Assembly: GCA_046331705.1 (NCBI GenBank)
Contig: JAXLQJ010000005.1
Span: 124,001-188,000, forward strand
Length of the DNA: 64,000 nucleotides
Reading direction: 5' to 3'
From: a bacterium
Lineage (GTDB): Bacteria; JADJOY01
Shown: piece after piece, positions 1-20,465 of the stretch
Numbering within the stretch: the first letter of the stretch is position 1
Layout of the letters: each line of letters begins with the position of its first letter
Position numbers and translations under genes: made by a program
The notes under the pieces: generated by a model
Told to the model about the DNA's origin: nothing
Database searches by the model: none
The model's input: only the letters and a program-made list of their open reading frames with translations

Positions 1-2
1 CC

Positions 3-1139
3 ATCAACATCCACCGGATCATCGCCAACGTGGCGTTCGGCGGATCCGTGGCTGCTGCTTACGCGGCGTGGAAGTACCTGGGCGCCACCACGGACGAAGA
101 GCGAGCCCACTACGACTGGATGGGCTACATCGGCAACTTCGTCGCGATCCTGGCGTTCCTGCCGCTGCCCTTCGCGGGCTACTACCTGGCGCGCGAGATC
201 TACGGCTACAACCAGGCACTCGGCATCATGATGATGGGCGGAGCGTTCTCTTGGCTCTTCATCATTCAAGCGGTGCTGATCGGCAATCTCTTCCTGGCCG
301 CCAACGCCTACCTGTGGCTCGGCATGGGCCGGATCGAGGGCGCCCAGCCGTTCCAGAAGTTCATCAAGTACCTGCTCCTCACGATCGCCTTGTGCTTCGC
401 GGTGTGGGCCACGCCGCGCTCCATCATCTCCACGGTCTCCGAGATTCGCGCGATGGGCGGTTCGACTCACCCCGCGCTCGGCTTCCTGGGTGTGATGTCG
501 GCCAAGAACACGGCGGTCAACATCCTGATCCTCACCACGTTCATGAGCTTCCTGCTCTACCGCCGCTCGGGAAAGCAATCCGTTCGCGAGTGGGCCACGA
601 AGGCGAACCTGGTTCAGTTCGCGCTCTTCTTCGGCGCCGCGGCCTGGGTGATCTTCTTCGGCATCCGCGGCTACTTCGTCGAAGCCAAGGTGCGCATCGG
701 CTACTCGGTCTACCAGGTGGTGGCGGTGCTGTTCGCGATGGTGGCGATCACCGCCATCGACGTCCCGCTCTATCGCGGCGCGCGCTCCACCGGTGAGACC
801 CGCTGGGGGCGAATGCCGCCGCTCTCGCAATACATCCTGATCTTCATCGCGGTCACCTTCACGTGGCTCATGGGCCTCATGGGTTACGTGCGCTCCGGGC
901 TGCGGATGCACTGGCACGTGTACGGCGTCGTCCGTGACAACTCGGTCGACGCCTTCACGCCCACGCTGGGCTTCGCGACCAAGGTGGTTTCGGTGACAGT
1001 CCTGATCTTCTTCGCGCTGATCGGCATGGTCTTCTGGCTCGCGGGCCTCTCCCACGCCCCCGATTGGACCGCCAAGGGCGCGGAGCCGGCCAGCCCGGGC
1101 GCGGGCGGGCACCACGCCGGCGAAGGAGCGGCGGCATGA
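3..1139 (+). CDS. Cytochrome bd-like oxidase subunit I (CydA-like, Nitrospira-type), 5'-truncated by the window edge
   Basis: Frame is open from position 3 (INIHRIIANVAFGG). Polytopic membrane protein with YYLAREIY and a C-terminal WLMGLMGYVRSGLR..WHVYGVVRD segment corresponding to the CydA GRxPW region of bd-like oxidases. Stop overlaps the next ATG (ATGA). Confidence 0.75.
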   Translation: MNIHRIIANVAFGGSVAAAYAAWKYLGATTDEERAHYDWMGYIGNFVAILAFLPLPFAGYYLAREIYGYNQALGIMMMGGAFSWLFIIQAVLIGNLFLAANAYLWLGMGRIEGAQPFQKFIKYLLLTIALCFAVWATPRSIISTVSEIRAMGGSTHPALGFLGVMSAKNTAVNILILTTFMSFLLYRRSGKQSVREWATKANLVQFALFFGAAAWVIFFGIRGYFVEAKVRIGYSVYQVVAVLFAMVAITAIDVPLYRGARSTGETRWGRMPPLSQYILIFIAVTFTWLMGLMGYVRSGLRMHWHVYGVVRDNSVDAFTPTLGFATKVVSVTVLIFFALIGMVFWLAGLSHAPDWTAKGAEPASPGAGGHHAGEGAAA

Positions 1140-1627
1140 GGATTCCGCCCGCGCTCAACGTGGTGGTGCTCGTGATCGCGACCACTGCGTTCTACACCTA
1201 CGTCGGCCAGCTGGTGCCCCAGAAGGAGATCCAGCCGCCCGCGGAGGTGAAGATCTCGAAGGACATGACCACCGCGGACTTGATCAAGGTCGGTGACGAG
1301 ATCGCGCACGGCAAAGGCATGTGCAGCACCTGCCACACGATCGGCAAGACCGGTGCGCTTCGTTACCCCGACCTGCAAGGCGTGGGAGAGCGCGCCAAGA
1401 CTCGCAAGCCCGGCTACAGCGACGTCGACTACTTCGCCGAGTCGCTCTACGAGCCCGACGCGTTCGTCGTACCGGGGTTCAACAAGGGCATGCCCACCAT
1501 CAACAAGGCTCCCATCGGCCTGACCGACGAGGAGATCCTCGCCGTGATGGCTTGGCTCCAGAGCCAGGGCGGCACGCCGAACGTCACCCTCAAGACCACG
1601 CACAAGTACCGGCCAAAGGCCGACTGA
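1136..1627 (+). CDS. Membrane-anchored monoheme c-type cytochrome
   Basis: ATG at 1136 overlaps the upstream TGA; N-terminal TM helix; CSTCH heme motif; ESLYEPDAFVVPGF..GMP distal Met region. Confidence 0.85.
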   Translation: MRIPPALNVVVLVIATTAFYTYVGQLVPQKEIQPPAEVKISKDMTTADLIKVGDEIAHGKGMCSTCHTIGKTGALRYPDLQGVGERAKTRKPGYSDVDYFAESLYEPDAFVVPGFNKGMPTINKAPIGLTDEEILAVMAWLQSQGGTPNVTLKTTHKYRPKAD

Positions 1628-1668: not shown

Positions 1669-2490
1669 GTGAACCTCATCGTCATCGCCGGGATCGTCGC
1701 GGTGCTGATCGTGCTGCGGTTCGTCAGGCCGCCGCTGCCGATCTGGCTATCGGCGTGCTGGCTCGCGGTGTTCGCGCTGGTTCGCTTGGGATTCACGACG
1801 CCGGTGCCCGCCTCGGCCGTCAAGATCTACCTCTCGATCACGACCCTCGCCCTGTTCGTCTACGCGTTCACTTCTGCCGAGCGCGCCGCTCAGATCACCG
1901 GCCCGCTCGGCAAGCTGCTCGCGGAGCCGCGCTACACCCCGTTGCTCGCGCTGGTGGCCGTGGCGATCCCGGCGCTCGTCGCTTTCGACGTCTACAAGAC
2001 GCGGACTGCGCCCATCGAGGCCCCGTTCTTCGCTCGCACGATCCATCCGTCGCCCCCGACCAGCATCACGGTTCACGACGCGGCCGTGGACCTGATCAAG
2101 ACGGAGAATCCGTTCCGGCATCTCAAGGAAAGCGATTCCGACGCGTACAGACGGCACATCGATGCCGGGCGCGCGACCTACTACCAGAATTGCTTCTACT
2201 GTCATGGCGACGGCCTCGGTGGCGATGGGGTGTTCGCGCACGGATACAACCCGCTCCCCACCAAGTTCACCGACCCCAACGTCCTGCCGAACTTCCAGTC
2301 GTCCTTCTTCTTCTGGCGGGTGTCCAAGGGTGGTCCGGGCATGCCCGACGAGGGCGGCCCCGGCGACTCCGCGATGCCGCCCTGGGAGAAGTTCTTGAGC
2401 AACGACGAGATGTGGGAGGTGATTCTCTTCCTCTACGATTTCACCGGCATGCAGCCCAGAGCTCTGGAAGAGCACGGCGCGCACGAATGA
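1669..2490 (+). CDS. Membrane protein with C-terminal monoheme cytochrome c domain
   Basis: GTG start inferred; about 4 hydrophobic helices, then CFYCH and SAMPPW. Confidence 0.8.
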   Translation: MNLIVIAGIVAVLIVLRFVRPPLPIWLSACWLAVFALVRLGFTTPVPASAVKIYLSITTLALFVYAFTSAERAAQITGPLGKLLAEPRYTPLLALVAVAIPALVAFDVYKTRTAPIEAPFFARTIHPSPPTSITVHDAAVDLIKTENPFRHLKESDSDAYRRHIDAGRATYYQNCFYCHGDGLGGDGVFAHGYNPLPTKFTDPNVLPNFQSSFFFWRVSKGGPGMPDEGGPGDSAMPPWEKFLSNDEMWEVILFLYDFTGMQPRALEEHGAHE

Positions 2491-4172
2491 GAGCGATTCG
2501 CGTCGCAGCCCTCGGTGGGCTCGGATTGGCCGCGAGCCTCGGGCTCGCTTCGGCGGCCACCCCCGATCTCGGCACTCCGGCGCAACGCGACGCCGGCAAG
2601 CTGCTCTACGAGAAATACTGCAGCCAATGCCACGGTGAGAAAGGCGATGGCGCTGGGGTCGCCGCCGCCCACCTGAAGCCCAAGCCTCGCGACTTCACCA
2701 AAGGCAAGTTCAAGATCCGTAGCACGCCTGGCGGTTCCGTTCCGACCACCGCCGACCTCGTGCGCATCATCCGCCACGGCATGCCGTACAGCACGATGCC
2801 CGCCTGGCCGAGCTTCAAGGACGACGAGCTCCAATCGCTCGCTTATTACGTGAAGAGTTTCTCCCCGCACTTCTCCGACGCCGAGTCGAACGCGGATCCG
2901 GTCCCGCTGCCCCAGCCGCCACCTTTCTCGAAGGAGCGCGCCGAGCAGGGCAAGAAGCTCTACGCGGACACGGGGTGCGCGCGCTGCCACGGCGTCGCCG
3001 GGCGTGGCGACGGCCCTTCGGCGCCGACGCTCAAGGACGATTGGGGAAACCATCTCCACCCTGCCGTTCTCGAGCGCCCCTGGACCTTTCGCGGAGGCGC
3101 GACGCGCGCCGACATCTTCCGCGCCATCACCACCGGTCTGACCGGCACTCCGATGCCGGCGTTCCAGGAGGCGCTGAGCGAGGAGCAGCGTTGGCAGCTC
3201 GTCGATTTCATCGCGTCGCTCTCCGGGCGTGAGCAACCCAATTACTCGAATCTGGTGCGCGTAGCGCGCGTCAACGGCGAGCTCGACATCACCCAGGCAG
3301 ACGAGACCTTCGCCAGCGCGGAGCCCGCCTTCTTTCCCGTCGTCGGTCAGATCTCGCAACCGGGACGCGAGTTTCACCCATCGTGCAACGGCATCGAGGT
3401 GACGGCCGTCCAGAACGGCACGGACATCGCGATTCGTTTGCGTTGGACGGACATGCGGGCCGAGACCAGCGGCAAGAACGACCCCGCCCAGAAGGTCCCC
3501 GACTGGAAGGACGATCCGTTCGGCGGGGCTCCCAAAGCGGCGGCTCCGGCGACCGACTCCGGCGACGTGTGGGGAGACGAGGTGGCGACACCCGCCGCAG
3601 GCGGGACCGCCGCATCCGGTGCCGGCGGCGACTTCTGGGGCGAGGGCGAATCCGAGCCCGCCGCGGCCAGCCAGACCCCGGAGACTGAGTTCTCGGACGC
3701 GGTCGCGATCCAGTTTCCGCTCGACGAGGCCACCGAGGTTCGCCGCCCGTACTTCATCTTCGGCGACGCGGGCCACGCGGTGGATCTGTGGTTCCTCGAC
3801 CTCGCTCACGCCAACCCCGTGCAGTACGTGGGCAAGGGCTACGAGTCCTTGGAGTCGCAGGGCGCCGGTGACCTCAGCGCGATCAAGCAATACGAACAGG
3901 GGCGCTGGACGGCGATCTTCAAGCGTCCCTTGCGCAGCCGCGGCGGCGCCCATCTCGAGGAAGGCAAGTTCACCCCCGTCGCGTTCAGCGTCTGGGATGG
4001 CTTCAACCGTGAGCGCGGCAACAAGCGCGGGCTCACGACCTGGTACCACCTCTACGTCGAGGCGGGCACGCCCGAGTCGCCGGTCGCACCGATGGCGCGG
4101 GCGGCGGGCTCGGTACTCGCGGTGGAGCTGGTGGTGATCGCCGTGGCGCGGCGTCGTCGCAAGGCGAGCTGA
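2487..4172 (+). CDS. Diheme c-type cytochrome fused to an ethylbenzene-dehydrogenase gamma (EB_dh/DOMON heme-b)-like domain, C-terminal membrane anchor
   Basis: ATGA overlap; signal peptide; CSQCH and CARCH, each followed by MPAW/MPAF; C-terminal FSDAVAIQFP...GRWTAIFKRPL...VAFSVWDG..ERGNK is typical of EbdC/NxrC-like domains; terminal TM helix plus RRRRK. Confidence 0.8.
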   Translation: MRAIRVAALGGLGLAASLGLASAATPDLGTPAQRDAGKLLYEKYCSQCHGEKGDGAGVAAAHLKPKPRDFTKGKFKIRSTPGGSVPTTADLVRIIRHGMPYSTMPAWPSFKDDELQSLAYYVKSFSPHFSDAESNADPVPLPQPPPFSKERAEQGKKLYADTGCARCHGVAGRGDGPSAPTLKDDWGNHLHPAVLERPWTFRGGATRADIFRAITTGLTGTPMPAFQEALSEEQRWQLVDFIASLSGREQPNYSNLVRVARVNGELDITQADETFASAEPAFFPVVGQISQPGREFHPSCNGIEVTAVQNGTDIAIRLRWTDMRAETSGKNDPAQKVPDWKDDPFGGAPKAAAPATDSGDVWGDEVATPAAGGTAASGAGGDFWGEGESEPAAASQTPETEFSDAVAIQFPLDEATEVRRPYFIFGDAGHAVDLWFLDLAHANPVQYVGKGYESLESQGAGDLSAIKQYEQGRWTAIFKRPLRSRGGAHLEEGKFTPVAFSVWDGFNRERGNKRGLTTWYHLYVEAGTPESPVAPMARAAGSVLAVELVVIAVARRRRKAS

Positions 4173-4212
4173 TCGCGCACCAGCGCCGTCGTAGCGAAAG
4201 GCTGGAGGGCTC

Positions 4213-6285
4213 ATGTACGAAACGATCTACGTGCCCGTCGACAACTCCCCCCACTCGAACGAGGCGATCCACCTCGGCGTCGAGCTCGGCAAGGCCTTCT
4301 CGAGCCGCATGGTGGGCTGTCACGTCTACGCCGCGCGCATGCACGACTACCGCTTCAAGCAGATGGAGTTCACGCTCCCCGAGGAGTACCTCGAGGAGAA
4401 CGAGCTCATGCGCCAGCGCAAGATCCACGACAGCCTCATCACCATGGGGCTCAAGCTCATCTCCGACAGCTACTTGGCGCCGATGGCGGAAACGTGTGCC
4501 ACCGCGGGGCTCGAGTTCGAGCCCCGCATGATGGACGGCAAGCACTCGGTGGAGCTGCTGCGCGACATCGACGCGCACGGCTACGATCTGGTGGTGCTGG
4601 GCGCCCTCGGGCTGGGACGCGTACGCGACAGCCAGATCGGCTCGGTGTGCGAGCGCGTGGTGCGCAGCACCACCCGCGACGTGCTCGTCATCAAGGACGT
4701 CCCGGCCAAGGACGGCACCCGCGAGGCGACCAGCGACACGATCCTGGTCGGCATCGACGGCAGCCCGCAGTCCTTCGGCGCGCTGATGACCGCCATCGAG
4801 CTCGCGCGAAAGCTCGGCAAGCGCGTCGAGGCCGTCGCCGTCTACGATCCTTACCTGCACTACTCGGTGTTCGCGAGCGTGGTCGACGTGCTCACCGAGA
4901 AGGCGGCCAAGGTGTTCCGCTTCGAGGAGCAGAACCAGCTCCACGAGGAGATCATCGACACCGGTCTCGCCCAGATCTACGAGTCGCACCTGAAGGTCGC
5001 CGAGCACATGGCGCGCTCGGTGGGCGTCGAGATCACGCGCACCTTGCTCGACGGCAAGGCCTTCCAGAAGGTGCTCGACCACGTCCGCAAGACGCGCCCC
5101 TGGCTCTTGGTGCTGGGACGAATCGGCGTCCACAGCCCGAGCGACGAGCGCTCGCTGGGAAGCAACACCGAGAACCTGCTGCGCCAGGCGCCTTGCAACG
5201 TGCTGCTCACGACGCGCGTCGAGCACCCCGAGCTCGACGTGAAGGCCGAGGAGACCATCCGCTGGACGCCCGAGGCGGAGGAGCGGATGACCAACGTGCC
5301 GCCGCTCGTCCAAGGGATCGCGCGCACCGCGATCTACCGGCTCGCGGTCGAGCAGGGTCATAGCGTGATCACCAGCTCGCTGCTCGACGAGGCGATGGAC
5401 CGCTACATGCCGAAGGCGACCGCCGAGGCGACCACCAAGTTCGCCGAGGCACTCATCCTCGAGCGCGCGAAGGAGCAGCCGGTGGCGGTGTGCCGGCGTT
5501 GCGGCGTCACCGCGAGCGAGACCGAGCCGGTCAAGTGCGCGGTGTGCGGCGCGACCACCTTCGACAAGATCAGCGCCGCGCAAGTCGCCGAGATCATCCG
5601 CATGGAAGGCGGCGCCGAGGCCGAGACCACCTACGATGGCCGCTCGCTGACCTGGACCCAGGACGCGAAGCGCGCGTTGTGGACGCTCAAGGAACCCTAC
5701 CAGCGCCGCCGCACCAAGGCGCGGATCGAGAAATCGGTCCGGCTCAAGCGGCTCGACACCGTGACGCTCGAGCTCGCGCGCGGCGCGATCGAGGACGAGC
5801 TCGGCGCGCCGCTCGCGCTGGGCGAGCGCGAGCCGACGAGCGCAGGCTCCGCCGAAGCCGCGGGGCTCACGCTCGACGACGGCAAGAAGCTGATCGCGCG
5901 CGACGACAAGAAGAACCCGCTCTTCTCCACCCGCAAATGGACCGCGGACGCCGTGCAGCGCGTCTTCCGGGTACCCGCGGGCTTCATGCGAACCAAGACC
6001 CAGGAGCGCATCGAGGCGCTGGCCGACGAGCGCCAGAGCGTGGTCATCGACCTGGCGCTGGTGGAGGAAGCGATCGGCGCGAGCCGACAGCTCATGGCCG
6101 AGATGATCCAGGGCTACGCGGCCAACCCCGAGGCCGCGCGGCGCGTCGTGACCGCGCCGTCCGCACCGGCGCTCGCGCGACCGGGATCCGCGAGCGAGCC
6201 CGTTCCGCTCAACGAGGTCGGCATCATGTCCGCGCTGAGCGCGATGCGGCAGGGCGGCCAGGGCGGCGAGAGCGCCGACAACTGA
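4213..6285 (+). CDS. Tandem universal stress protein domains + rubredoxin-like Zn finger + three PCP_red-like domains
   Basis: GGAGG RBS; two USP domains (IYVPVDNS..DLVVLGALG..GSV; ILVGIDGS..LLVLG..GSN); CRRC..CAVC; three W[T]xxA-type helical repeats starting near 5263, 5653 and 5938. Confidence 0.8.
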   Translation: MYETIYVPVDNSPHSNEAIHLGVELGKAFSSRMVGCHVYAARMHDYRFKQMEFTLPEEYLEENELMRQRKIHDSLITMGLKLISDSYLAPMAETCATAGLEFEPRMMDGKHSVELLRDIDAHGYDLVVLGALGLGRVRDSQIGSVCERVVRSTTRDVLVIKDVPAKDGTREATSDTILVGIDGSPQSFGALMTAIELARKLGKRVEAVAVYDPYLHYSVFASVVDVLTEKAAKVFRFEEQNQLHEEIIDTGLAQIYESHLKVAEHMARSVGVEITRTLLDGKAFQKVLDHVRKTRPWLLVLGRIGVHSPSDERSLGSNTENLLRQAPCNVLLTTRVEHPELDVKAEETIRWTPEAEERMTNVPPLVQGIARTAIYRLAVEQGHSVITSSLLDEAMDRYMPKATAEATTKFAEALILERAKEQPVAVCRRCGVTASETEPVKCAVCGATTFDKISAAQVAEIIRMEGGAEAETTYDGRSLTWTQDAKRALWTLKEPYQRRRTKARIEKSVRLKRLDTVTLELARGAIEDELGAPLALGEREPTSAGSAEAAGLTLDDGKKLIARDDKKNPLFSTRKWTADAVQRVFRVPAGFMRTKTQERIEALADERQSVVIDLALVEEAIGASRQLMAEMIQGYAANPEAARRVVTAPSAPALARPGSASEPVPLNEVGIMSALSAMRQGGQGGESADN

Positions 6286-6337
6286 GCTCCGCGCACTGCC
6301 GCTGCGTCGAGCGTCCGCCCGATCGAGCCTCGTCGCG

Positions 6338-7189
6338 ATGCCCGGCTATCGGTTCTGCCGAACCGACGATCTCGGCTTGCTGGCGGATGCGTACAACCGC
6401 TGCATCGCCGCGCACGTGCCCGGCGCACCCGCGCTCACGGCGGAGCGACTGAAACGGCGCGGGCGCAACGTCGACTTCTGGGCCTCGAGCTCGATGCTGG
6501 CGTTCGGCGATGACGGCCCGATCGGCGTGCTGCTCGCAGCCAAGCGCACGGCAGCAACCTGCCTCCTCGCCGTCGGGCTGCACCCGGACCATCGACGTCA
6601 GGGGCATGCGCGCCATCTGCTCGGATCGCTCGCCCAGAAGCTCGAGATTCTCGGCCCCCCGCGACTGATCTTCGAGGTCGACGCGACGGATGCGGCGACC
6701 CACGGACTGCTCGCGGCGTGCGGATGGCGCGAGACCGGCGAGCTCGCGGACCTGGTCCGGGAGAGCGAAACGCACGCCGCGCCTCGCCCCCCGCAAGCGC
6801 TTCCCGATCTCGCCACGCCAGTCACCTTCGACGAGCTGGCCGCGGTGGGCACGATCGGTTCGTGCGAGTCGTGGACGCGCGCCCGCGCGACCCTCAAGCG
6901 CCGCGCCGGAGAGCTCGAGGGCCTGGCGATCCTCTCCGATCGCGTCGAGGCCTTCTGCCTCTTCGAGCACGGCCCCGACGGCGCCGAGCTCTCGATCGCG
7001 GCGCTCGGGGCGCCCGGCTCGGACGCGGCGCTCGCGCCGCTCGTCGATGCGCTGGCGGCGCGCGGCGCAGCACGGCTGCGTATCCCGCGACTCGGCACGG
7101 ACGAGGTCTCGATCGACTTGCTGGCCGCGCTCGGCTTTCGCAGCGAGCGCCGCTGGTCTCGATTTTCGCTCGACGTGAGCGTCGGGTAG
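6338..7189 (+). CDS. GNAT-family acetyltransferase-like protein
   Basis: VGLHPDHRRQGHARHLL acetyl-CoA binding motif A; second degenerate GNAT half ending ALGF. Confidence 0.7.
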   Translation: MPGYRFCRTDDLGLLADAYNRCIAAHVPGAPALTAERLKRRGRNVDFWASSSMLAFGDDGPIGVLLAAKRTAATCLLAVGLHPDHRRQGHARHLLGSLAQKLEILGPPRLIFEVDATDAATHGLLAACGWRETGELADLVRESETHAAPRPPQALPDLATPVTFDELAAVGTIGSCESWTRARATLKRRAGELEGLAILSDRVEAFCLFEHGPDGAELSIAALGAPGSDAALAPLVDALAARGAARLRIPRLGTDEVSIDLLAALGFRSERRWSRFSLDVSVG

Positions 7190-7205
7190 CCTCGCGCGGA
7201 CCGTC

Positions 7206-8081
7206 ATGAAGAGTTACCACGACATCGTCGGGGACGGCGGCGCCAACGTCCTGGGCCAAGTCCAAGCGATCCGCGCGCGGCGCGCGCGCAACCTGAGCGA
7301 GATCCGCAACCTGATCGCGGTGGCGTCGGGCAAGGGGGGCGTCGGCAAGAGCACGCTCGCGACCCAGCTCGCCGCGGGCCTTCACGACGCCGGTCGCCGC
7401 GTCGCGATCCTCGACGCGGATCTCAACGGCCCCAGCCAGGCTCGGCTCACGGGGCTCGGTCTCAAACCGCTGGTGCCGACGAGCGACGGTCGCGTCGCGC
7501 TTCCCCGAACCGCGCACGGCATCGGCGTGGTCTCGATCGGCGCACTGGTGCCCGAAGGCGAAGAGCTGCGCTTCGACACCGTCGCCAGCGGCGAGATGCA
7601 CACCTGGCGCGCCACGCGCGAGTTCACCTTGCTCGAGGAGCTGCTCGGCACGGTCGCGTGGGGTCCGCTCGACGACCTCGTGATCGACCTACCGCCGGGC
7701 GCGGAGCGCGCCGTCCAGTTCGCGGAGTTCCTCGGGGCGGCGGTGCGATTCGTCGTGATCACGATCCCCAGCTCGCTGGCACGCGGCGTGGTGGCGCGCT
7801 CGCTCGCGGCGCTCGCGAAGACTCCCAACCGCGTGCTCGGATACGTCGAGAACATGAGCGGCTATCACTGCATCGGATGCGCCAGCACCCAGCCGCTGTT
7901 CCCGAGCGAGCAACCGCGCGAGCTCGCGGCGCGGTTCCTGGGAAGCGTTCCGTTCGACCCCGCGCTGGCGGCGCGCTGCGATCGCGGCGAGTCGGTCTTC
8001 GCGCCGCCCACGCTGCCGTCCGCCGCCGCCGTCGCCGCGATCGTGGAACGCGTGATCGCCGCGCTCGAGGAGGTCCCGTGA
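7206..8081 (+). CDS. mrp: Mrp/ApbC/NBP35 family P-loop ATPase (Fe-S cluster carrier)
   Basis: ASGKGGVGKST deviant Walker A, DADLNGPS, DLPPG, ENMSGYHCIGC cluster-binding CxxC. Confidence 0.85.
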   Translation: MKSYHDIVGDGGANVLGQVQAIRARRARNLSEIRNLIAVASGKGGVGKSTLATQLAAGLHDAGRRVAILDADLNGPSQARLTGLGLKPLVPTSDGRVALPRTAHGIGVVSIGALVPEGEELRFDTVASGEMHTWRATREFTLLEELLGTVAWGPLDDLVIDLPPGAERAVQFAEFLGAAVRFVVITIPSSLARGVVARSLAALAKTPNRVLGYVENMSGYHCIGCASTQPLFPSEQPRELAARFLGSVPFDPALAARCDRGESVFAPPTLPSAAAVAAIVERVIAALEEVP

Positions 8082-8521
8082 AGTTCCTCTGCGTCCCCTG
8101 CGATTCCCCGATGCGCCTCGTCGAGACCAAGCCGCCGGATCGCGGCTCGCTCACGCTGCTCTACGCGTGCCCGGCCTGCGGTTACGAGATGGCGATGCTG
8201 ACGAACCCCTTCGAGACCCAGGTGGTGGGCTCGCTCGGTGTGAACGTCGAGCCGGGTGGCGCGCCCAGCGCGCCGACGGCGGGCGCCTCGAAGTGCCCCA
8301 TCGCGGGCATCGCGCGCGGCGAAGCCGAGCCGCTCCCGACCGCGTCGACGGACGCGGGCCCGCTCACGTGGACCGCCGAGGCGGAACGTCGGCTCGACAA
8401 CGTGCCGTCGTTCGCGCGGCCCATGGCGCGCACCGGCGTCGAACGTTTCGCACGCGAGCGCGGCTACGCCCGCATCGACGAGCGGGTCATGGACGAGGCC
8501 AAGGACTTCTTCGGGATGTGA
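8078..8521 (+). CDS. Small Zn-ribbon protein with C-terminal PCP_red-like domain
   Basis: GTGA overlap with mrp and GGAGG RBS; MKFLCVPC..CPAC; SKCP; WTAEAERRLDNVPSFARPMARTGVERFARERGYARIDERVMDEAK. Confidence 0.8.
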   Translation: MKFLCVPCDSPMRLVETKPPDRGSLTLLYACPACGYEMAMLTNPFETQVVGSLGVNVEPGGAPSAPTAGASKCPIAGIARGEAEPLPTASTDAGPLTWTAEAERRLDNVPSFARPMARTGVERFARERGYARIDERVMDEAKDFFGM

Positions 8522-8573
8522 CGGCGCGCGCGCACGCCTCACGCTCACCTCGACCGGCCCGAGCGACGTCGCC

Positions 8574-9914
8574 ATGAATCCCGCGCTTCCGGCGGAACCG
8601 ACGGCGGTATTCGATCGCCCCTACGTCGTCTCGTGGAACCTCACGTATCGGTGCAATCTGGCGTGCGAGCACTGCTACCTCGACGCCGGCCCGAATCCGC
8701 TGGTCGCCAGCGACGCCTTCGCGGACCGGAGCGAGCTCGGCACGGAGGAATGTTTCGCGGTCGCGGACCAGATCGCGCAGCTCGCGCCCGAGTGCGTGAC
8801 GATCCTGACCGGCGGCGAACCGCTGTTGCGCCGCGACATCCTGGCGATCGTCGCCCACGCCGCGAGCCGCGGGCTGTGGGTCGTGGTCGGCACGAACGGT
8901 GTGCGGATCACCGAGAACGTCGCCTCGCAGCTGGCGGCAAACGGCGCACGCGGCGTGGCGCTCTCGCTCGATGCCGTCGACGGCGCGGCGCACGACGCCT
9001 TTCGCAACGTGCGCGGCGCCTTCGCCAACACCGTCGAAGCGGCGCACGTCCTCGCCCGTGTGGGCATGCCGTTCTTGATCCAGACGACCGTCGCGCGTCA
9101 CAACGTGGACGACCTCGAGGCCATCGCGGAGCTGGCGCACGAGCGCCTCGGAGCCAAGGTCTGGAACCTCTACTTCCTGGTCCCCAGCGGTCGCGGCGAG
9201 TACGTCTCCGACCTCGACCCCGCGACCTACGACGGCGTCCTCGAGCGCCTCTACCACCTGCAACGGCGCTTCTCCGGGCGCATGCTGGTGAACGCCAAGT
9301 GCGCGCCCCACCACGTGCGGACGGCGCTCGCGCACGATCCCGACGCGCCCTTGCCGCGGACCTACGCCGGCGGCGCCGGCGGTTGCCCGGCCGGGACCCA
9401 CTACCTGGGGATCCGGCCGAACGGCGACGTCACGCCGTGCCCCTACCTGCCAGTCTTCGCGGGGAACTTGCGCAGCGATTCGCTCGGCGAGATCTGGACC
9501 GACTCGGAGCTCTTCCAGCGCATCCGCAAGCGCGACTCCTTGGGCGGACGGTGCGGCGACTGCGAGCTCAAGTCCGCCTGCGGCGGATGCCGCGCGCGCG
9601 CGCACGGCACGAGCGGCGACTACATGGCGGCCGATCCGCTGTGCGCCCACGAGGTCGGGCGCTTCAAGGACCTGCCCTCGATCGCGCGCCGCGACGAAGG
9701 CTACGGCGAGCGAGCCGCACCGGGGCTGCGCTGGGACCCCGCGGCGCTGGAGCGAATGAAGCAGATCCCGGCCTTCGTGCGCGGCATGGTGACGCGCACG
9801 GTCGAAGCCCACTGCCGCGAGCGCGGGATCACGGTGATCGACGAGCGCACGCTCGCGGAAATCCGCTCGCGAATGCCAGCGGCCCGGGTATTCGGCAAGC
9901 CCGAGCGGTTGTGA
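8574..9914 (+). CDS. Radical SAM/SPASM protein (AhbD/NirJ-like) with C-terminal PCP_red-like domain
   Basis: SWNLTYRCNLACEHCY, LTGGEPL, SPASM cysteines (GCPAG, PCPY, CGDC..CGGCRARA, DPLC); tail WDPAALERMKQIPAFVRGMV..VEAHCRERGITVID. Confidence 0.85.
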   Translation: MNPALPAEPTAVFDRPYVVSWNLTYRCNLACEHCYLDAGPNPLVASDAFADRSELGTEECFAVADQIAQLAPECVTILTGGEPLLRRDILAIVAHAASRGLWVVVGTNGVRITENVASQLAANGARGVALSLDAVDGAAHDAFRNVRGAFANTVEAAHVLARVGMPFLIQTTVARHNVDDLEAIAELAHERLGAKVWNLYFLVPSGRGEYVSDLDPATYDGVLERLYHLQRRFSGRMLVNAKCAPHHVRTALAHDPDAPLPRTYAGGAGGCPAGTHYLGIRPNGDVTPCPYLPVFAGNLRSDSLGEIWTDSELFQRIRKRDSLGGRCGDCELKSACGGCRARAHGTSGDYMAADPLCAHEVGRFKDLPSIARRDEGYGERAAPGLRWDPAALERMKQIPAFVRGMVTRTVEAHCRERGITVIDERTLAEIRSRMPAARVFGKPERL

Positions 9915-9968
9915 GCCGCCACTCCGGCGCCAGCGCGCCTCCAACGCGCGCGCGTCCGTGCCGGTCGC

Positions 9969-10772
9969 TCAGCCCCAGAACTCGTCGCCGCCTTCACCGG
10001 GCTTCGGTGCTTGCGCCGCGAGCCACTGGTCGAACTCCGCCTGCGTGTGGATCGTGACGAAACCACGCATGCGGTAATGACCGAGACCGCAGAGCTGCGC
10101 GCAACCGATCTCGTAGGTGAACTTCGGATCGCCCGTTCGAGCGCGCATCTCCTCGGTCGTCACCGTCGGCTCGAACCACAGCGGCGACTCGATTCCGGGG
10201 ATGGCATCCTGCTTCACCCGCATCTCCCACAGAGCGAAGCTGTGGATCACGTCCTTGCTGCTGAGACGCACGATGACCGGTTTGTGGGCCGGCAGATGAA
10301 GCTGATTCACGGTCGTGATGTCGTCCTTGCCGTGCGCGTCCTCGGGATCGAGACCCAGCGGGTTCGTCTGCGCGTCGACGAAGCGCGGGTCCGTGTGACC
10401 GAAGACACCGTCCGCGCCGGGGTAGTGGAAGTTCCAGGCGAATTGCTCCGCGACCACCCGCACCACGACCGCGTCCTTCTCGGCCGGGAACTTGTCGACG
10501 CGAACCGACCAGAGCGGGATCGAGAAGCCCACCAAGATCACGGCCTCGACCAACGCCACCGCCACTTCCAGGTAGGTGTTCTTGTGTCCCGTGACGCCGA
10601 CGTAGTCCGCTTTCGGGTTCGCGCTCGCTCGGAAGCGGATGAGCGTGTAGACGAAGAACGCGCCCCAGCCCACGAACAGCAAGGCCATCAAGACGTGCAC
10701 GTAGCCGATCACCTGATCGACCTTGGCCCCGTGCTCGGACGCAAGCTGCGGGAGAGACAACCACTCGTGCAT
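9969..10772 (-). CDS. coxB: Cytochrome c oxidase subunit II (CuA), no fused cytochrome c domain
   Basis: Two TM helices, EQFAWNFHYPG, DVIHSF, CAQLCGLGHYRM CuA ligands. Confidence 0.93.
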   Translation of the reverse strand: MHEWLSLPQLASEHGAKVDQVIGYVHVLMALLFVGWGAFFVYTLIRFRASANPKADYVGVTGHKNTYLEVAVALVEAVILVGFSIPLWSVRVDKFPAEKDAVVVRVVAEQFAWNFHYPGADGVFGHTDPRFVDAQTNPLGLDPEDAHGKDDITTVNQLHLPAHKPVIVRLSSKDVIHSFALWEMRVKQDAIPGIESPLWFEPTVTTEEMRARTGDPKFTYEIGCAQLCGLGHYRMRGFVTIHTQAEFDQWLAAQAPKPGEGGDEFWG

Positions 10773-10789
10773 CCGATCCTCCGCTCGCG

Positions 10790-11059
10790 TTAACTCGGGT
10801 TCTCACACGCGGCCGGCGCGGCTGCGAGCGCGGCGGCTCCGCTGAATCGTCGGGCGCGCCTCGACAAGTAGACGAAGAACGTGAGGAAGCCGATCCACAT
10901 CGACGCCACCACGGCGATCAGCAGCCACGCCCCGAGCCGCGCGCCGTCGATCATCGGTCCCGTGGCCTCGCCGTAGCAGGCGGGGCAGGCCCAGACGGCG
11001 GAGCTCGAGAGCGTCAGCGCTGCCGTCGCGAGCAGCGCGACGAGCGGGACTCTCGCCAT
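10790..11059 (-). CDS. Small exported/membrane protein with CxxC immediately after the signal peptide
   Basis: MARVPLVALL..AVWA-CPACYG.. followed by one TM helix; lies within the cox operon. Confidence 0.65.
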   Translation of the reverse strand: MARVPLVALLATAALTLSSSAVWACPACYGEATGPMIDGARLGAWLLIAVVASMWIGFLTFFVYLSRRARRFSGAAALAAAPAACENPS

Positions 11060-11064
11060 CGCGC

Positions 11065-11268
11065 TCACGACTCGAGGCCCCGCAGCTTGCGCAGGAACCA
11101 GCCGCCGTAGCTGAGCAACGCCACCCCGGCTGCCGTCGACGCGGCACCCATCAGCACCATTCCCACGTCGCTCGTGCTGCGCCCCTCGGCGATTCCCCAC
11201 GCCCCGAAACCGAACACCGTGAGCGTCGCCACCAGGATGAACACGACGTGAAAGCCCTTGAGATTCAC
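11065..11268 (-). CDS. Small two-helix membrane protein of the cox operon
   Basis: MNLKGFHVVFI..; two hydrophobic helices; tight operon spacing. Confidence 0.7.
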   Translation of the reverse strand: MNLKGFHVVFILVATLTVFGFGAWGIAEGRSTSDVGMVLMGAASTAAGVALLSYGGWFLRKLRGLES

Positions 11269-11276
11269 GGTGGTGC

Positions 11277-11657
11277 TCAGTGGCCCGCGTGGGCGCCGTG
11301 CTCGCCAGCGGGCTGCGCGACCTTGTCGGGATGAGTCAGCTTGCCGACGTGGTCCACGATGGAAGTCGCGGTGGGCGTCAGCAACAGCACGAAGAAGAAG
11401 CCGACCGTCAATCCCAGCACCGCGAAGATCGTCTTGCGTTCCGAGAGCAGGTGCATGAAGTACGCGGCCACCAACGAGCCCTTGATGGTGGCGATGACCA
11501 GCGCGAGCGCGATCGCCTCGCGCTTCGGCAGATCGAGCTCCGCGACGACCACCGTCACCACGGTCAAGGCCAGCAGGCTACCGAAGACGATCAACGCCGA
11601 ACGTACGTGCTTGTCGAGGTCCGCGGCGTGGTGGTCCACAGCGTGATTCGCGCTCAT
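11277..11657 (-). CDS. coxD: Cytochrome c oxidase subunit IV (CtaF/CoxD family)
   Basis: ALVIATIKGSLVAAYFMHL signature; GGAGG RBS upstream of the ATG at 11657. Confidence 0.85.
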   Translation of the reverse strand: MSANHAVDHHAADLDKHVRSALIVFGSLLALTVVTVVVAELDLPKREAIALALVIATIKGSLVAAYFMHLLSERKTIFAVLGLTVGFFFVLLLTPTATSIVDHVGKLTHPDKVAQPAGEHGAHAGH

Positions 11658-11673
11658 CTCGCCTCCGCCACCG

Positions 11674-12264
11674 TCACAGCAGGTAGAGAACCGGAAAGAG
11701 GAAGATCCAGACCAGATCCACCAGGTGCCAGAACAGGCCGGCATTTTCCACACGATTCGTGAACCATTGCGGATTGGTCTCGAAGAGCCTCGAGCCCGGG
11801 CCCAGCAGATACGCGTTGACCGCCATCCCGCCGATCACGTGCAAACCGTGCAAACCGGTGAGCGTGAAGTAGATCGCCAGGAACGTGTTGGTTCGCGGGA
11901 AGAGACCGTGATGGAACTTGGTCGTGTACTCGAAGTACTTGATGACCAGGAAGATGCAGCCGCAGAGGATCGTGATCCCCATCCATTGGCGGAACTTCCC
12001 GAGGTCGCGTCGCACCAGCGACGCCCAAGCGAGCACCACGGTGATGCTGGAGCTGATCAGCACCAGGGTGTTGGTGAACGCCATCTTGATGTTCAGGATG
12101 GTGCGTCCAGCCGGCCACTCGGAGGCGCCGACGCGCAGCATGATGTAGGCGGCGAAAAGGCCGCCGAAGAGCATCACCTCCGACGCCAGGAAGAGCCAGA
12201 TGCCGATCTTCCCATTCGTCAGCCCGGTATCCGGGCGGGGGTCGACGGTGTACGGGATCTCCAT
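11674..12264 (-). CDS. coxC: Cytochrome c oxidase subunit III
   Basis: WLFLASEVMLFGGLF, LTGLHGLHV, GLFWHLVDLVWIFLFPVLYL. Confidence 0.93.
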   Translation of the reverse strand: MEIPYTVDPRPDTGLTNGKIGIWLFLASEVMLFGGLFAAYIMLRVGASEWPAGRTILNIKMAFTNTLVLISSSITVVLAWASLVRRDLGKFRQWMGITILCGCIFLVIKYFEYTTKFHHGLFPRTNTFLAIYFTLTGLHGLHVIGGMAVNAYLLGPGSRLFETNPQWFTNRVENAGLFWHLVDLVWIFLFPVLYLL

Positions 12265-12270
12265 GCTCGC

Positions 12271-14043
12271 TCACCCCCTGGCCGGATCGAATTGCGGGAA
12301 GAAATCGGTCGCGTGCCCCGGCGCGCTGTACTCGTAAGGCCCGCGATGCGCCTCGGGGATGGTGACGAAGTTGCCGTGCGGCGGTGGCGACGGCGCCGCC
12401 CACTCGAGCGTGGTCGCATCCCACGGATTGTCGGAAACCTTCTCGCCGCCGCGAATGCTCGTGAATAGATTGATCATGAACGGGATCTGCGAGACCGCCA
12501 GACCCCACGCCGAGAAGGACATCACCTTGTTCAGGTACAGGTAGTGCGCGACGTGTGCGTAGGTCTCGCCGCCGTCGGCCATGCGGCGTGACATCCCGGC
12601 GAGGCCTTGGATGAACATCGGGAAGAAGATTCCGTTCATGAACACGAACGACGGCCAGAAGTGCAGCTTGCCGAGGGACTCGCTCATGCGACGTCCGGTC
12701 GCCTTCGGAAACCAGTAATAGACGCCCGCGAACAGCGCGAAGATCGTTCCCGGCGCGACCACGTAGTGGAAGTGCCCGATCACGTAGAGCGTGTCGTGCA
12801 GATGGATGTCGGGAAACGACAGCCCGAGCGGCAGTCCCGTGAGCCCGCCGATGCCGAACATCGGCAAGAAAGCCAACGCGAAGAGCATTGGTGTGGTGAA
12901 TCGAATCGAGCCGCCCCACAACGAGACGAAGAACGCGGTGAGGACGATCACCGAAGGGATCGAGATGATCATCGTCGTGGTCTGGAAGAACGCGGCCATC
13001 ACGCTGCCCATGCCGGTGATGAACATGTGATGCGCCCACACCACGAACGACATGAAGCCCAGGAACACCACCGCGTAGACCATCGCGCGATAGCCCCAGA
13101 GCGGTTTGCGCGTGTTGTTCGCGACCACCTCGGCCACGATGCCCATGGCCGGCAGGATGAGAACGTAGACCTCCGGATGCGCGAGGAACCAGAACAGGTG
13201 CTGCCAGAGCAGCGGGCTACCGCCACCGCTGACGTTCAGCATCTTGCCGCTCACGACCAGACCGCTCGGCAGGAAGAAGCTGGTGCCCGCCACGCGATCC
13301 ATGAGCTGCAGGATGCCGGCGGCCTCGAGCGGCGGGAACGCGAGCAGCAACAGAAACGCGGTCACGAGCTGCGCCCACACGAAGAACGGCAATCGCATGA
13401 ACGTGAGCCCCTTGGTGCGGAGCTGGATCGTGGTGACGATGAAGTTGATGGAGCCGAGCAGTGACGAGGTGATCAGGAAGATCATCCCCACGAGCCACGT
13501 GGTCTGGCCGGGCGAGATGTCGGACAACGGCGGATACGACGTCCACCCCGATTGCGCGGCGCCGCCGGGCAGGAAGAAGCTCGCCAACATGACGACGCCG
13601 CCCATGGCATAGACCCAGTAGCTCGCCATGTTGATGCGCGGGAAGGCCATGTCGGGCGCGCCGATCTGCAGTGGCAGCACGAAATTCCCGAAGGCGCCCA
13701 CGCCGAGCGGCACGACCCCCAGGAACACCATGATCGTGCCGTGCATGGCGCCGAGCTGATTGTAGAAGTCGGGCGCCATCGCGCCGCCCGGCATCACCGC
13801 GTCGCTGAAGAGCTTGCCGAGGCCGAAGGGGAGCGGCTTGCCCGGGAAGGCGAGCTGCCACCGCATCAGCATCATCAAGCAGAAACCGAAGAACAGGAAC
13901 GCGAGCGCCGTGAGCCCGTATTGAATGCCGATGACCTTGTGATCGGTCGAGAACACGTACTTCCGCCAGAACCCGAGCTCGTGATGCTCGGGATGGCCAT
14001 GGCCTCCGCCGTGACTCGAATGGTGCTCATGCGACGAGCTCAT
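12271..14043 (-). CDS. coxA: Heme-copper oxidase subunit I, A1-type
   Basis: STDHKVIG, MHGTIM, GAPDMAFPR, FWFLAHPEVY, WAHHMF, HDT..GHFHYV, GMSRR; His-rich N-terminus. Confidence 0.96.
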   Translation of the reverse strand: MSSSHEHHSSHGGGHGHPEHHELGFWRKYVFSTDHKVIGIQYGLTALAFLFFGFCLMMLMRWQLAFPGKPLPFGLGKLFSDAVMPGGAMAPDFYNQLGAMHGTIMVFLGVVPLGVGAFGNFVLPLQIGAPDMAFPRINMASYWVYAMGGVVMLASFFLPGGAAQSGWTSYPPLSDISPGQTTWLVGMIFLITSSLLGSINFIVTTIQLRTKGLTFMRLPFFVWAQLVTAFLLLLAFPPLEAAGILQLMDRVAGTSFFLPSGLVVSGKMLNVSGGGSPLLWQHLFWFLAHPEVYVLILPAMGIVAEVVANNTRKPLWGYRAMVYAVVFLGFMSFVVWAHHMFITGMGSVMAAFFQTTTMIISIPSVIVLTAFFVSLWGGSIRFTTPMLFALAFLPMFGIGGLTGLPLGLSFPDIHLHDTLYVIGHFHYVVAPGTIFALFAGVYYWFPKATGRRMSESLGKLHFWPSFVFMNGIFFPMFIQGLAGMSRRMADGGETYAHVAHYLYLNKVMSFSAWGLAVSQIPFMINLFTSIRGGEKVSDNPWDATTLEWAAPSPPPHGNFVTIPEAHRGPYEYSAPGHATDFFPQFDPARG

Positions 14044-14170
14044 CAGGCGATTCTCCCTCTACCCGTGGCGATCGAGGCGCTGCGGTCGAACGGCAATCGG
14101 CTCCGGCACGTTGGTGCGGGCGCTGCGGCGGGCTGCGACCGGCCGCCGTGCCGCCGCCGGAGGGCCGAGC

Positions 14171-14884
14171 TCACTTTCCCGGGGCGCTGAACGTGAACGT
14201 GATGCTCTTGGTGTCGCCCTCGGCGATCGTCACCGACTGCTTCTGCGTGCCGAGCTTCTCGTGCCACGCGCTCAGCTCGTAGGTCCCCGCCGGCACGTTC
14301 GCGATCTTGAACTTGCCGTCCTTGCCCGTGACGCTGAAGAACGGGTGCGCGTAGACGCGCACGTACGCGTTCATCCAGGGATGGACGTCGCACTTGACCT
14401 TGAAGAAGCCTTCCTCCTTCGGAAAGCTCGCCTCCTTCTCGGTCACGTTGCCGGGCATGGCCAGGTTGAACTCCTTGTTGAGCTGCGGCAGCGCGTGAAC
14501 GTTGTGCAGGATCGCGTCGGAGTTCTTGAACTTGAGCTGCTGACCGGTCTGGATCCCCAGCACGTGGGGAACGTACATGCAGCCGTTCTGATCGATTTCC
14601 GCCGGGCCGCTCGGGGCGGGATACGTCTTTCCTGCGGGTAGCCCCGACTCGACGCTCACGGCCACGTTCCCGAGGGCGTTGCCGTCTCCCAGCACCAGGA
14701 TGTCGTTGGCAACCGGGCTCGTGTGCTTCCCGGCACAGGTCGGGTCCGCGTCCATGGACACTGGCTTCAGATTCGGCACGGCGCCCGAATAGCTCACCGA
14801 TCCCTCGATCGTTCCGGCCAAGGCCACGCCAACGCACAGCGCTTGGGCGCTGGCGACGACACCGAGAACACGCGCTCGCAACAT
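14171..14884 (-). CDS. Exported cupredoxin-like / carboxypeptidase-regulatory-like domain protein
   Basis: Signal peptide; DQNGCMYVPHV; NSDAILHNVH; KCDVHPWMNAY; VPAGTYELSAWHE. Confidence 0.75.
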   Translation of the reverse strand: MLRARVLGVVASAQALCVGVALAGTIEGSVSYSGAVPNLKPVSMDADPTCAGKHTSPVANDILVLGDGNALGNVAVSVESGLPAGKTYPAPSGPAEIDQNGCMYVPHVLGIQTGQQLKFKNSDAILHNVHALPQLNKEFNLAMPGNVTEKEASFPKEEGFFKVKCDVHPWMNAYVRVYAHPFFSVTGKDGKFKIANVPAGTYELSAWHEKLGTQKQSVTIAEGDTKSITFTFSAPGK

Positions 14885-14918
14885 GACTGAGTCTCCTCCT
14901 CGGATCCGTTTCCGGGGT

Positions 14919-16127: not shown

Positions 16128-16170
16128 GGCTCGCGAGCTCCTCTGCGTCCCGAGTTCCGACCGCGGGGCA

Positions 16171-16734
16171 TCACGCCCGCCGCGGCACCAGCTCGACGTG
16201 CTTGGCGCCGATCCCGCGGAGAAAGTCCGGTGTCCGCTGCGGATCGAAGCGCGGGTCCCACGATTCGATCGAGATGAAGAACCCGTCGTCGCTCGCACGC
16301 GCGAACCGCTCCGCGTGAAACAGCGGATGGAAGAGCATGGGCAGTTGATTCAGGCCGAACATGCCGAAGACCGCGGCGAACGCGGCGAACAGCACACCCA
16401 GCTCGAAGACGATGGGAATGAACGCCGGCCAGCTGAAATACGGCTTGCCGCTGTAGACGATGGGATAGTCGACGACGCTCATCCACCACTGCATCAGGAG
16501 CGCGCTGGCGGCGCCGACCAGCCCGAGCGCGAGCACCAGGAACGGCAGCCGTGAGCGCCGGAGCCCCATCGCGCGGTCGAGCCCGTGAATGGGAAACGGC
16601 GTGTGCGCGTCCCATCTCGTGTAACCCGCGTCGCGCACCTGCTCGCAGGCTTCGTAGAGCGCCTGGGGCGAGTCCAGCTCGGCGAGCGCGCCGAAATGCT
16701 CGCCCTCGGGCAGGGACGGCATCAACAAGCCCAT
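16171..16734 (-). CDS. actD: Alternative complex III subunit ActD (DUF3341)
   Basis: DAHTPFPIHGLD, DYPIVYSGKP..SWPAFIPIVFELGVLF signatures. Confidence 0.9.
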   Translation of the reverse strand: MGLLMPSLPEGEHFGALAELDSPQALYEACEQVRDAGYTRWDAHTPFPIHGLDRAMGLRRSRLPFLVLALGLVGAASALLMQWWMSVVDYPIVYSGKPYFSWPAFIPIVFELGVLFAAFAAVFGMFGLNQLPMLFHPLFHAERFARASDDGFFISIESWDPRFDPQRTPDFLRGIGAKHVELVPRRA

Positions 16735-16735
16735 C

Positions 16736-18151
<1,416 letters not shown>

Positions 18152-19613: not shown

Positions 19614-19633
19614 AGGCACGGGCTCCCGCGACC

Positions 19634-20428: not shown

Positions 20429-20465
20429 ACCGATCCCGCCAATCCGCCGCGAGAAAGCTCAAGCC

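Follow-up and report, generated by a model that had tools for sequence, protein, structure and literature searches.

Few candidate terminal oxidases of bacteria that oxidise nitrite or manganese are expressed as highly as the bd-like oxidases, according to the TO_1 preprint (bioRxiv 10.1101/2021.11.15.468770), and the OR-N family of the cytochrome bd superfamily has been defined in a second preprint (bioRxiv 10.1101/2021.01.16.426971). The haem content and electron donors of bd-like oxidases, and even their oxygen-reducing activity, are unproven. Here we describe a stretch of 64,000 nucleotides (the window; positions 124,001 to 188,000 of contig JAXLQJ010000005.1 in assembly GCA_046331705.1, GTDB lineage JADJOY01) that opens with four genes of such an oxidase (A to D), followed on the same + strand by a set of five accessory genes (E to I). 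Three of the accessory proteins, namely a universal stress protein (USP) E, a Zn-ribbon protein H and a radical SAM enzyme I, contain PCP_red (PF08369), known as the C-terminal domain of the DPOR subunit BchB/ChlB; the other two are a GNAT acetyltransferase (F) and an Mrp-type ATPase (G).

The described cluster that A to D resemble is TO_1 of Nitrospirota, which in the available text of its preprint has the same make-up: a bd-like CydA, two cytochromes c and a periplasmic cytochrome b (bioRxiv 10.1101/2021.11.15.468770). Judged by gene content and PF01654 coverage, and so from sequence, A to D is a cluster of TO_1-type/OR-N bd-like composition. Unlike the TO_1 and OR-N descriptions, however, a cytochrome c7 gene and a gene for a QrcB/QrcC-like protein precede A here. 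In their accessible portions, the OR-N preprint, the Manganitrophaceae TO_1 preprint and the Nitrospina genome paper make no mention of ‘radical SAM’, and the last two contain neither ‘universal stress’ nor ‘protochlorophyllide’; the same portion of the Nitrospina paper reports a ‘putative zinc finger’ protein in the NXR/bd-like cluster. Full-text searches, supplementary files with their possible operon tables aside, turned up no paper that connects bd-like oxidases with PCP_red, a radical SAM enzyme or a USP. Searches on PF08369, PCP_red and IPR013580 found nothing on function, and no paper was found that joins PCP_red with radical SAM, or bd-like oxidases with NirJ, AhbD or Mrp.

A conserved gene pair beside the bd-like oxidase

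The smallest form of the gene set occurs at three loci, L088 (genome G112, in the phylum of G006) and L090 and L091 (G367 and G488, both in the phylum of G009). There, the oxidase genes (bd-like CydA, cytochromes c and a dihaem c/EB_dh protein) adjoin just two accessory genes, the first encoding a tandem USP with one PCP_red (390-411 aa) and the second, immediately behind it, a radical SAM/SPASM protein with PCP_red (407-421 aa). No Mrp, Zn-ribbon-PCP_red or GNAT gene is present at these loci, and G112 has exactly two PCP_red modules genome-wide. Because the minimal loci keep only these two genes, we take the conserved partnership to be that of a USP-PCP_red and a radical SAM-PCP_red protein encoded beside a bd-like oxidase. 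On this comparison, the extra modules of E, together with F, G and H, are additions in the lineage of the window and in Acidobacteriota. At L090 (G367), a second radical SAM/SPASM gene, without PCP_red, comes after the PCP_red-bearing one (L090:9076-10287 (-)), and a cytochrome b/b6 gene adjoins the oxidase genes.

The gene set was found only in those sampled genomes that carry A, which is strong evidence that it belongs with the bd-like oxidase. From the phylum of G006 (the genome of locus L020, labelled Vicinamibacterales), 301 genomes were sampled evenly. PCP_red was detected in 28 of these genomes and bd-like A in 22, all of them among the 28, and A was absent from all 273 genomes without PCP_red. 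Every genome with at least three modules (21 of 21) has A, and the six PCP_red genomes without A have one or two modules; the one of these six that was inspected, G269, encodes two BchB-type proteins in which Oxidored_nitro is joined to PCP_red. The A match in G006 itself contains TGA stops, so that copy may be broken or mis-assembled. Similarly, 12 of 201 genomes from the phylum of G009 (the genome that holds L058) have a strong A (47-71% identity), and all 12 have at least two modules, whereas none of the 134 PCP_red-negative genomes has a strong A; in at least eight of the 12, A and a module lie on one contig within about 10 kb. PCP_red itself was found in 67 of the 201, mostly as single modules in open reading frames (ORFs) of about 270-290 aa. 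In the organism's own GTDB phylum (six genomes), A and PCP_red occur in the same four genomes; the remaining pair, which belong to the same genus and are 86% and 74% complete, yielded neither. The co-occurrence of the gene set with a bd-like oxidase that the original prediction had proposed is thus borne out in 22 of 22, 12 of 12 and 4 of 4 genomes. Orthologues of A that are 47-92% identical adjoin the gene set in other genomes.

Closer relatives show how the extended set is organised. A scan for relatives of I in one genome per species gave at least 423 loci, of which the best 80 were kept; these are 59-84% identical to I and mostly carry Acidobacteriota labels. By tblastn, H and I were found in all 80, G in 76, E in 56, F in 50 and D in 43, counts that have to be read with the fact that a contig end or the limit of the 10-kb flank truncates many of the loci. 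G, H and I stand together in 76 of the best 80 loci, and where at least 8 kb is available upstream of G (62 loci), E is present in 42 and D in 40. At L054 the insertion between E and F consists of unrelated genes (a beta-propeller protein, an amidohydrolase and an MFS transporter). At L009 (genome G007), G, H and I stand alone and E lies on another contig, directly after A to D.

COX1 lies downstream of I in 30 of the 56 loci with enough flank. The aa3-type oxidase is widespread, and the set stays with A to D when it is split; a link to the aa3 oxidase beyond I was therefore set aside.

Five PCP_red modules in three proteins

That one helical module recurs five times across E, H and I, and that it resembles PCP_red, was claimed in the original prediction, whose five start positions are exact (Table 1). 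Each segment was scanned alone against PF08369, with its gathering score of 32.5 bits, and four of the five exceed that threshold; the middle module of E, E2, falls below it. We also cut module sub-alignments from alignments of 35 E, 76 H and 50 I orthologues and compared them by hhalign. E2 matches E3 with a probability of 94.9% (P 4.6e-8, 49 columns), and matches the modules of H and I with 41% and 49%, respectively; the maximum in 15 comparisons of modules with three control segments was 2.2%. In an AlphaFold2 model of E (mean predicted local distance difference test, pLDDT, 73.4), E2 forms helices at residues 483-489, 495-511 and 519-530, the short-long-medium pattern seen also in E1 and E3. 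Furthermore, weak PF08369 matches recur at the same middle position in E orthologues. E2 is a diverged PCP_red copy. The fold is shared as well: the C-terminal domain of the H model superposes on the solved PCP_red structure 2kru (root-mean-square deviation 0.9 A over 52 columns, TM by target 0.78), and also on 2l09 and on BchB (2ynm_D).

The modules therefore have the sequence family and the three-helix fold of the PCP_red of BchB/ChlB (PF08369; 2kru, and Asr4154, 2l09), and unlike in BchB they are fused to USP, Zn-ribbon and radical SAM proteins, with up to three in one chain. None of these proteins is itself a BchB/ChlB: PF00148 (Oxidored_nitro) has no match on E, H or I, and TIGR01278 (BchB/ChlB) gives E 34.5 and H 42.1 bits against a cut-off of 490. 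In the whole 8.17-Mb genome PF08369 has four matches, all in E, H and I; since it is matched nowhere else, there is no BchB and no DPOR.

Other PCP_red architectures exist. In the phylum of G009, about 45 of the 201 genomes have a single PCP_red in an ORF of about 270-290 aa and lack a bd-like A; these ORFs represent a different architecture, possibly that of a cluster combining a rubredoxin-like domain with PCP_red. Cluster look-ups, which we treat as leads only, returned radical SAM-SPASM-PCP_red clusters labelled Nitrospinota and a rubredoxin-like + PCP_red cluster labelled Nitrospirota (score 0.80).

The USP protein E and the acetyltransferase F

E begins with a tandem USP. PF00582 matches it in two stretches (129.1 bits), and residues 1-340 fold like the ATP-bound tandem USP TTHA0350 (3ab8_B, E 8.3e-17) and Rv2623 (3cis). 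A G-x2-G-x9-G-S pattern, which we take to be the ATP-binding motif of USPs, is invariant across the 35 orthologues, and E is accordingly predicted, from sequence and model, to be an ATP-binding protein of the tandem USP type. E shares its fold over residues 1-340 with TTHA0350, Rv2623 and UspE, but differs from all three in helical inserts within the USP domains and in a tail of 350 residues that holds the PCP_red modules and the Zn ribbon. The inserts, one in each USP domain (residues 41-97 and 215-269; window 4333-4503 and 4855-5019), are long and almost invariant across the 35 orthologues, and look like a conserved surface for a partner.

The Zn ribbon of E has weak matches to HypA and to Zn-ribbon families. 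Homology with the Zn ribbon of H was considered and rejected (hhalign 0.9%). The remaining neighbours, GNAT (F) and Mrp-type ATPase (G) among them, are of the families originally assigned and stand, as claimed, behind the bd-like CydA cluster; the C-terminal half of F is without a family match.

The radical SAM enzyme I and a proposed role in cofactor maturation

I combines a radical SAM domain (PF04055, 70.1 bits) with a SPASM domain (PF13186, 45.4 bits) and a C-terminal PCP_red, and the cysteines of its CX3CX2C motif (C27, C31 and C34) are invariant in 50 orthologues. Its closest families are AhbD (TIGR04545, 291.4 bits, covering profile positions 2-337 of 339) and NirJ2 (TIGR04055, 279.3 bits); AhbC (144), NirJ (161), MftC (157) and PqqE (139 bits) score far lower. 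No other gene of the genome is strongly AhbD-like (next best, 109.8 bits). I shares with AhbD and NirJ2 full-length similarity, the CX3CX2C core and the SPASM auxiliary-cluster domain. Unlike them, it has the extra PCP_red, its genome (95.7% complete) gave no match to PF17805 for the sirohaem decarboxylase AhbA/B, the partner in the sirohaem route, and it always occurs with a USP-PCP_red protein and is tied to the bd-like oxidase.

We propose that E to I form a dedicated maturation module for a haem-type cofactor of the bd-like oxidase, in which the USP and the radical SAM enzyme are joined via PCP_red and, in the extended form, Mrp and H feed in iron-sulfur (Fe-S) clusters. We give this proposal about an even chance of being right: it builds on observed domain identities, synteny and co-occurrence, and to these it adds a substrate, binding partners and a direction of Fe-S transfer that we infer. 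E to I would act in the cytoplasm as accessories to the oxidase complex whose genes lie immediately upstream, with I as the catalytic part, which most likely modifies an iron tetrapyrrole for that complex, be it the conversion of coprohaem to haem b or a related change of side chains. The PCP_red domains may serve protein-protein interaction, joining E with I or keeping both on a shared target, and E would make the enzyme responsive to nucleotide (energy) status. In Acidobacteriota and in the lineage of the window, E would have acquired a Zn ribbon and a second and third PCP_red, and the translationally coupled pair of Mrp (G) and adaptor (H) would have been added, probably to supply [4Fe-4S] clusters for I. 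The GNAT protein F, also added, may acetylate the USP protein or be controlled by it.

One alternative is that I serves the organism at large as an oxygen-independent haem b synthase: a coprohaem decarboxylase of the AhbD type, with helpers, that completes a coproporphyrin-dependent route and lies near oxidases on account of haem demand. AhbD and NirJ2 are, after all, its best family matches. A review names an AhbD-like radical SAM enzyme as one that ‘might be responsible’ for decarboxylating coprohaem anaerobically in the coproporphyrin route (PMC10114771). Moreover, neither ChdC nor HemF was found in the organism's genome (95.7% complete), and some 5.5 kb ahead of the operon stands a gene for a HemY-type proto/coproporphyrinogen oxidase (TIGR00562, 240.9 bits, cut-off 97.85; L085:6263-7717 (-), equal to G000:C5:116263-117717). 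In the 301-genome sample, 12 of the 22 set-positive genomes also lack any ChdC hit. However, a housekeeping enzyme should not track one oxidase, and the set was found only in genomes with A. ChdC is neither rarer nor commoner where the set is present in that sample (strong in 6 of 22; any hit in 10 of 22, compared with 94 of the 279 others). The genome encodes a true HemN (592.9 bits, cut-off 325) and a ferrochelatase, and I stays below the curated equivalog cut-offs for both AhbD and NirJ2 (291.4 and 279.3 bits against 500). Because of the strict link to A and the missing relation to ChdC, a dedicated tetrapyrrole enzyme fits better than a housekeeping haem synthase, and we regard the latter as unlikely. 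In two genomes a second copy of ChdC lies about 5 kb beyond I (G006:C3:3850252-3850812 and G282:C47:75257-75826). This second copy, the HemY-type gene and the review statement also give the proposed maturation module a haem context.

Mrp, its proposed adaptor and the Cys-Pro linker

The original prediction saw PCP_red as a docking tag for the Mrp ATPase or another partner, through which E, H and I would be served with Fe-S clusters or metal. G does look like such a carrier. It shares the PF10609 P-loop ATPase domain and the CxxC motif (C222 and C225, invariant in 59 sequences) with the Mrp/NBP35/ApbC carriers, MrpORP included, while scoring under the equivalog cut-offs (165.4 bits against 450 for MrpORP, 115.7 against 348 for ApbC). 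It differs from these carriers in a conserved N-terminal extension with an invariant Asp-Gly-Gly and in its translational coupling to the Zn-ribbon-PCP_red adaptor H. The GTG start of H stands behind a GGAGG and overlaps the stop codon of G by 4 nt, an overlap found in 44 of 69 loci, with a 12-nt gap in 12 more. In two loci (L014 and L074) G and H form a single ORF. Longer relatives of H number 99 proteins and include Mrp-H fusions (clusters P0129 and P0131, with five member sequences each), H-radical SAM fusions and a few triple fusions; most of these fused relatives are singleton clusters from metagenome assemblies.

The prediction of a complex with an Mrp dimer that had been suggested was run with H and gave a score of 0.49 (0.43, 0.49 and 0.51 in separate runs), the best of three controls reaching 0.00. 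At least 83% of contacts agree between runs, and the partner pLDDT is at least 69. In calibration, 58 of 80 solved complexes reached the score mark, as did 2 of 110 mismatched pairs, and at scores of 0.60 or less only 7 of the 80 solved complexes reached it, along with both mismatches that passed, so a value of 0.49 lends weak support. The tool gave no interface, and the Zn ribbon of H, instead of its PCP_red, may therefore be what touches Mrp.

Against PCP_red as an Mrp tag stand, above all, the minimal loci, which retain PCP_red in two phyla with neither Mrp nor H nearby; for this reason we do not accept Mrp as a conserved docking partner of the module. The sole Mrp match of G112 lies elsewhere, is only 36% identical and resembles the second, housekeeping-type copies of other genomes. 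Nor was the premise taken from DPOR, that PCP_red contacts the L-protein, confirmed in the portions of DPOR texts available: there a BchB helix covers the substrate cavity in trans, and the role of the last domain is not stated. Docking to Mrp as the general purpose of PCP_red is in our judgement quite unlikely. Of the dedicated cofactor machine that was originally envisaged, the tie to the oxidase holds, as does a maturation role, which fits the AhbD-like I; the docking to Mrp is at best a lineage-specific extra. We read G and H as a unit, with H as the adaptor that ties a private Mrp to the core of E and I.

H has a further conserved feature. Its model (mean pLDDT 74.6) exceeds 90 in the last 45 residues, and the N-terminal Zn ribbon, with four cysteines (C5, C8, C31 and C34), resembles in structure that of NrdR. 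The linker between them is modelled at a pLDDT below 50 and contains Cys73-Pro74 (window 8294-8302 encodes residues 73-75), which is invariant in 76 of 76 sequences and is followed by Phe75 in 70 and Met78 in 65 of them. A Cys-Pro is also present in the C-terminal tail of 15 of the 35 E orthologues, 13 of which read Arg-Cys-Pro-Phe; the E of the window lacks it. Cys-Pro with a hydrophobic residue resembles haem-regulatory motifs, and SPASM enzymes often act on Cys in peptides; the Cys-Pro(-Phe) of H could be either a haem-regulatory-like motif or a modification site. That I is a protein-modifying SPASM enzyme acting on the linker Cys of H and similar tails of E, with PCP_red for recognition between enzyme and substrate, would suit these invariant residues and the H-radical SAM fusions, but it is very improbable given that I is far closer to AhbD (291 bits) than to the listed peptide maturases (157 bits at most), that H is absent from the minimal loci and the motif from the E of the window, and that the Cys-Pro could equally be a ligand of the haem-regulatory type.

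Several points weigh against the proposed haem-type maturation module itself. The scores of I are so far under the AhbD and NirJ2 cut-offs that its substrate may differ from theirs, and a tetrapyrrole is a putative substrate, suggested by family likeness. With HemN and ferrochelatase present, haem b can be made without I; a source of coprohaem can itself only be presumed, because neither AhbA/B nor ChdC was found. The module alignments contain no conserved Cys or His, so PCP_red gives no hint of cofactor binding. Two of the 22 set-positive genomes (G058 and G155) are unpublished (20 of 20 remain without them), and the sampled genomes are related to each other and not independent, which makes the figures counts and not statistics. 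Finally, the fusions are weak evidence and many may be frameshift artefacts, because a 1-nt error would fuse the overlapping G and H.

Gene order and surroundings

The genes and domain features are collected in Table 1.

Table 1. Oxidase genes (A to D), accessory genes (E to I) and domain features, in window coordinates.
Feature	Position	Strand	Remarks
A: bd-like CydA-type membrane protein	1..1139	+	5' part before window; full gene G000:C5:123259-125139
B: monohaem cytochrome c, N-terminal membrane anchor	1136..1627	+	PF00034 30 bits; one CxxCH
C: membrane protein, cytochrome c domain at C-terminus	1669..2490	+	PF13442 40.9 bits
D: fusion of dihaem cytochrome c and EB_dh-type periplasmic cytochrome b domain	2487..4172	+	
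E: tandem USP, PCP_red 1, Zn ribbon, PCP_red 2 (diverged), PCP_red 3; 690 aa	4213..6285	+	
PCP_red module E1	5263..5394	+	49.7 bits, E 3.8e-13
Zn ribbon of E, CxxC-x11-CxxC	5491..5547	+	C427, C430, C442, C445 invariant in 35 orthologues
PCP_red module E2 (diverged)	5653..5802	+	16.6 bits, E 0.0085, under threshold
PCP_red module E3	5938..6072	+	33.4 bits, E 4.7e-8
F: GNAT acetyltransferase; C-terminal half without family match	6338..7189	+	PF00583 30.1 bits
G: Mrp/NBP35-type P-loop ATPase	7206..8081	+	PF10609 177.9 bits; invariant CxxC (C222, C225)
H: Zn ribbon, disordered linker with Cys73-Pro74, PCP_red	8078..8521	+	GTG start
PCP_red module of H	8369..8503	+	66.3 bits, E 2.5e-18
I: radical SAM/SPASM, closest to AhbD/NirJ2, C-terminal PCP_red; 446 aa	8574..9914	+	
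PCP_red module of I	9732..9860	+	45.3 bits, E 9e-12

The part of A cut off by the window was read from the genome, and on the full ORF PF01654 scores 83.8 bits, a match that spans only the N-terminal profile positions 2-240 of 418. The domains of D score 93.7 (PF13442), 85.1 (PF00034) and 65.6 bits (PF09459). In the 14 kb read before the window, A is directly preceded by two genes, first one for a multihaem protein of the cytochrome c7 type and then one for a 1134-aa QrcB/QrcC-like (ActB-like) iron-sulfur protein (both within L085:8984-12657 (+)), which suggests a module like alternative complex III (ACIII) that uses a bd-like membrane subunit. A second pair of ActB-like and NrfD genes lies on the opposite strand (L085:849-5330 (-)). 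Beyond I, an aa3-type cytochrome c oxidase operon (COX2, COX4 and COX1) is followed by the ACIII genes ActD and NrfD/ActC (window 9969-18151 (-)), with a gene for a CarboxypepD_reg-domain protein at 14171-14884 between the two groups. Further on is an Mla-type ABC transporter set of MlaE, ATPase, MlaD and an auxiliary lipoprotein (window 18459-22081 (+)). A scan of 3900-10200 for promoters and terminators returned 0 sites of both kinds, which is uninformative at 70% G+C.

At least half of the sampled words of the stretch are present in 17 sequencing runs from 11 studies, all of them metagenomes of activated sludge, wastewater or digesters; the runs are labelled ‘DNA?’, a kind guessed by the tool. 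Contigs from three metatranscriptome libraries (two studies) partly cover C, D, E, G, I and the COX genes, differing at 0-3 positions. As DNA carry-over is possible and there is no silent control stretch, these matches are not proof of expression, and the uncovered parts are uninformative.

Significance

A broader version of the proposed maturation module can be formulated, which we hold to be doubtful. Here, bd-like (OR-N/TO_1) oxidases, enigmatic in cofactors and function ever since the Nitrospira and Nitrospina genomes, would obligatorily need a cytoplasmic machine of their own: an AhbD-derived radical SAM enzyme that makes or remodels a special haem, gated by an ATP-sensing USP scaffold. 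PCP_red would be a portable domain coupling enzyme, scaffold and, in some lineages, a private Fe-S supply, with a general role in the assembly of tetrapyrrole enzymes, shared with BchB, onto which DPOR would have recruited it.

For oxidases whose cofactors are themselves in doubt, a gene pair that tracks the bd-like oxidase in every genome sampled, across three phyla, and that includes an enzyme like the oxygen-independent haem synthase, provides a concrete handle. The PCP_red family comprises more than 5,400 sequence clusters in public data and, if the proposal is true, the module described here would give it its first function outside chlorophyll synthesis.

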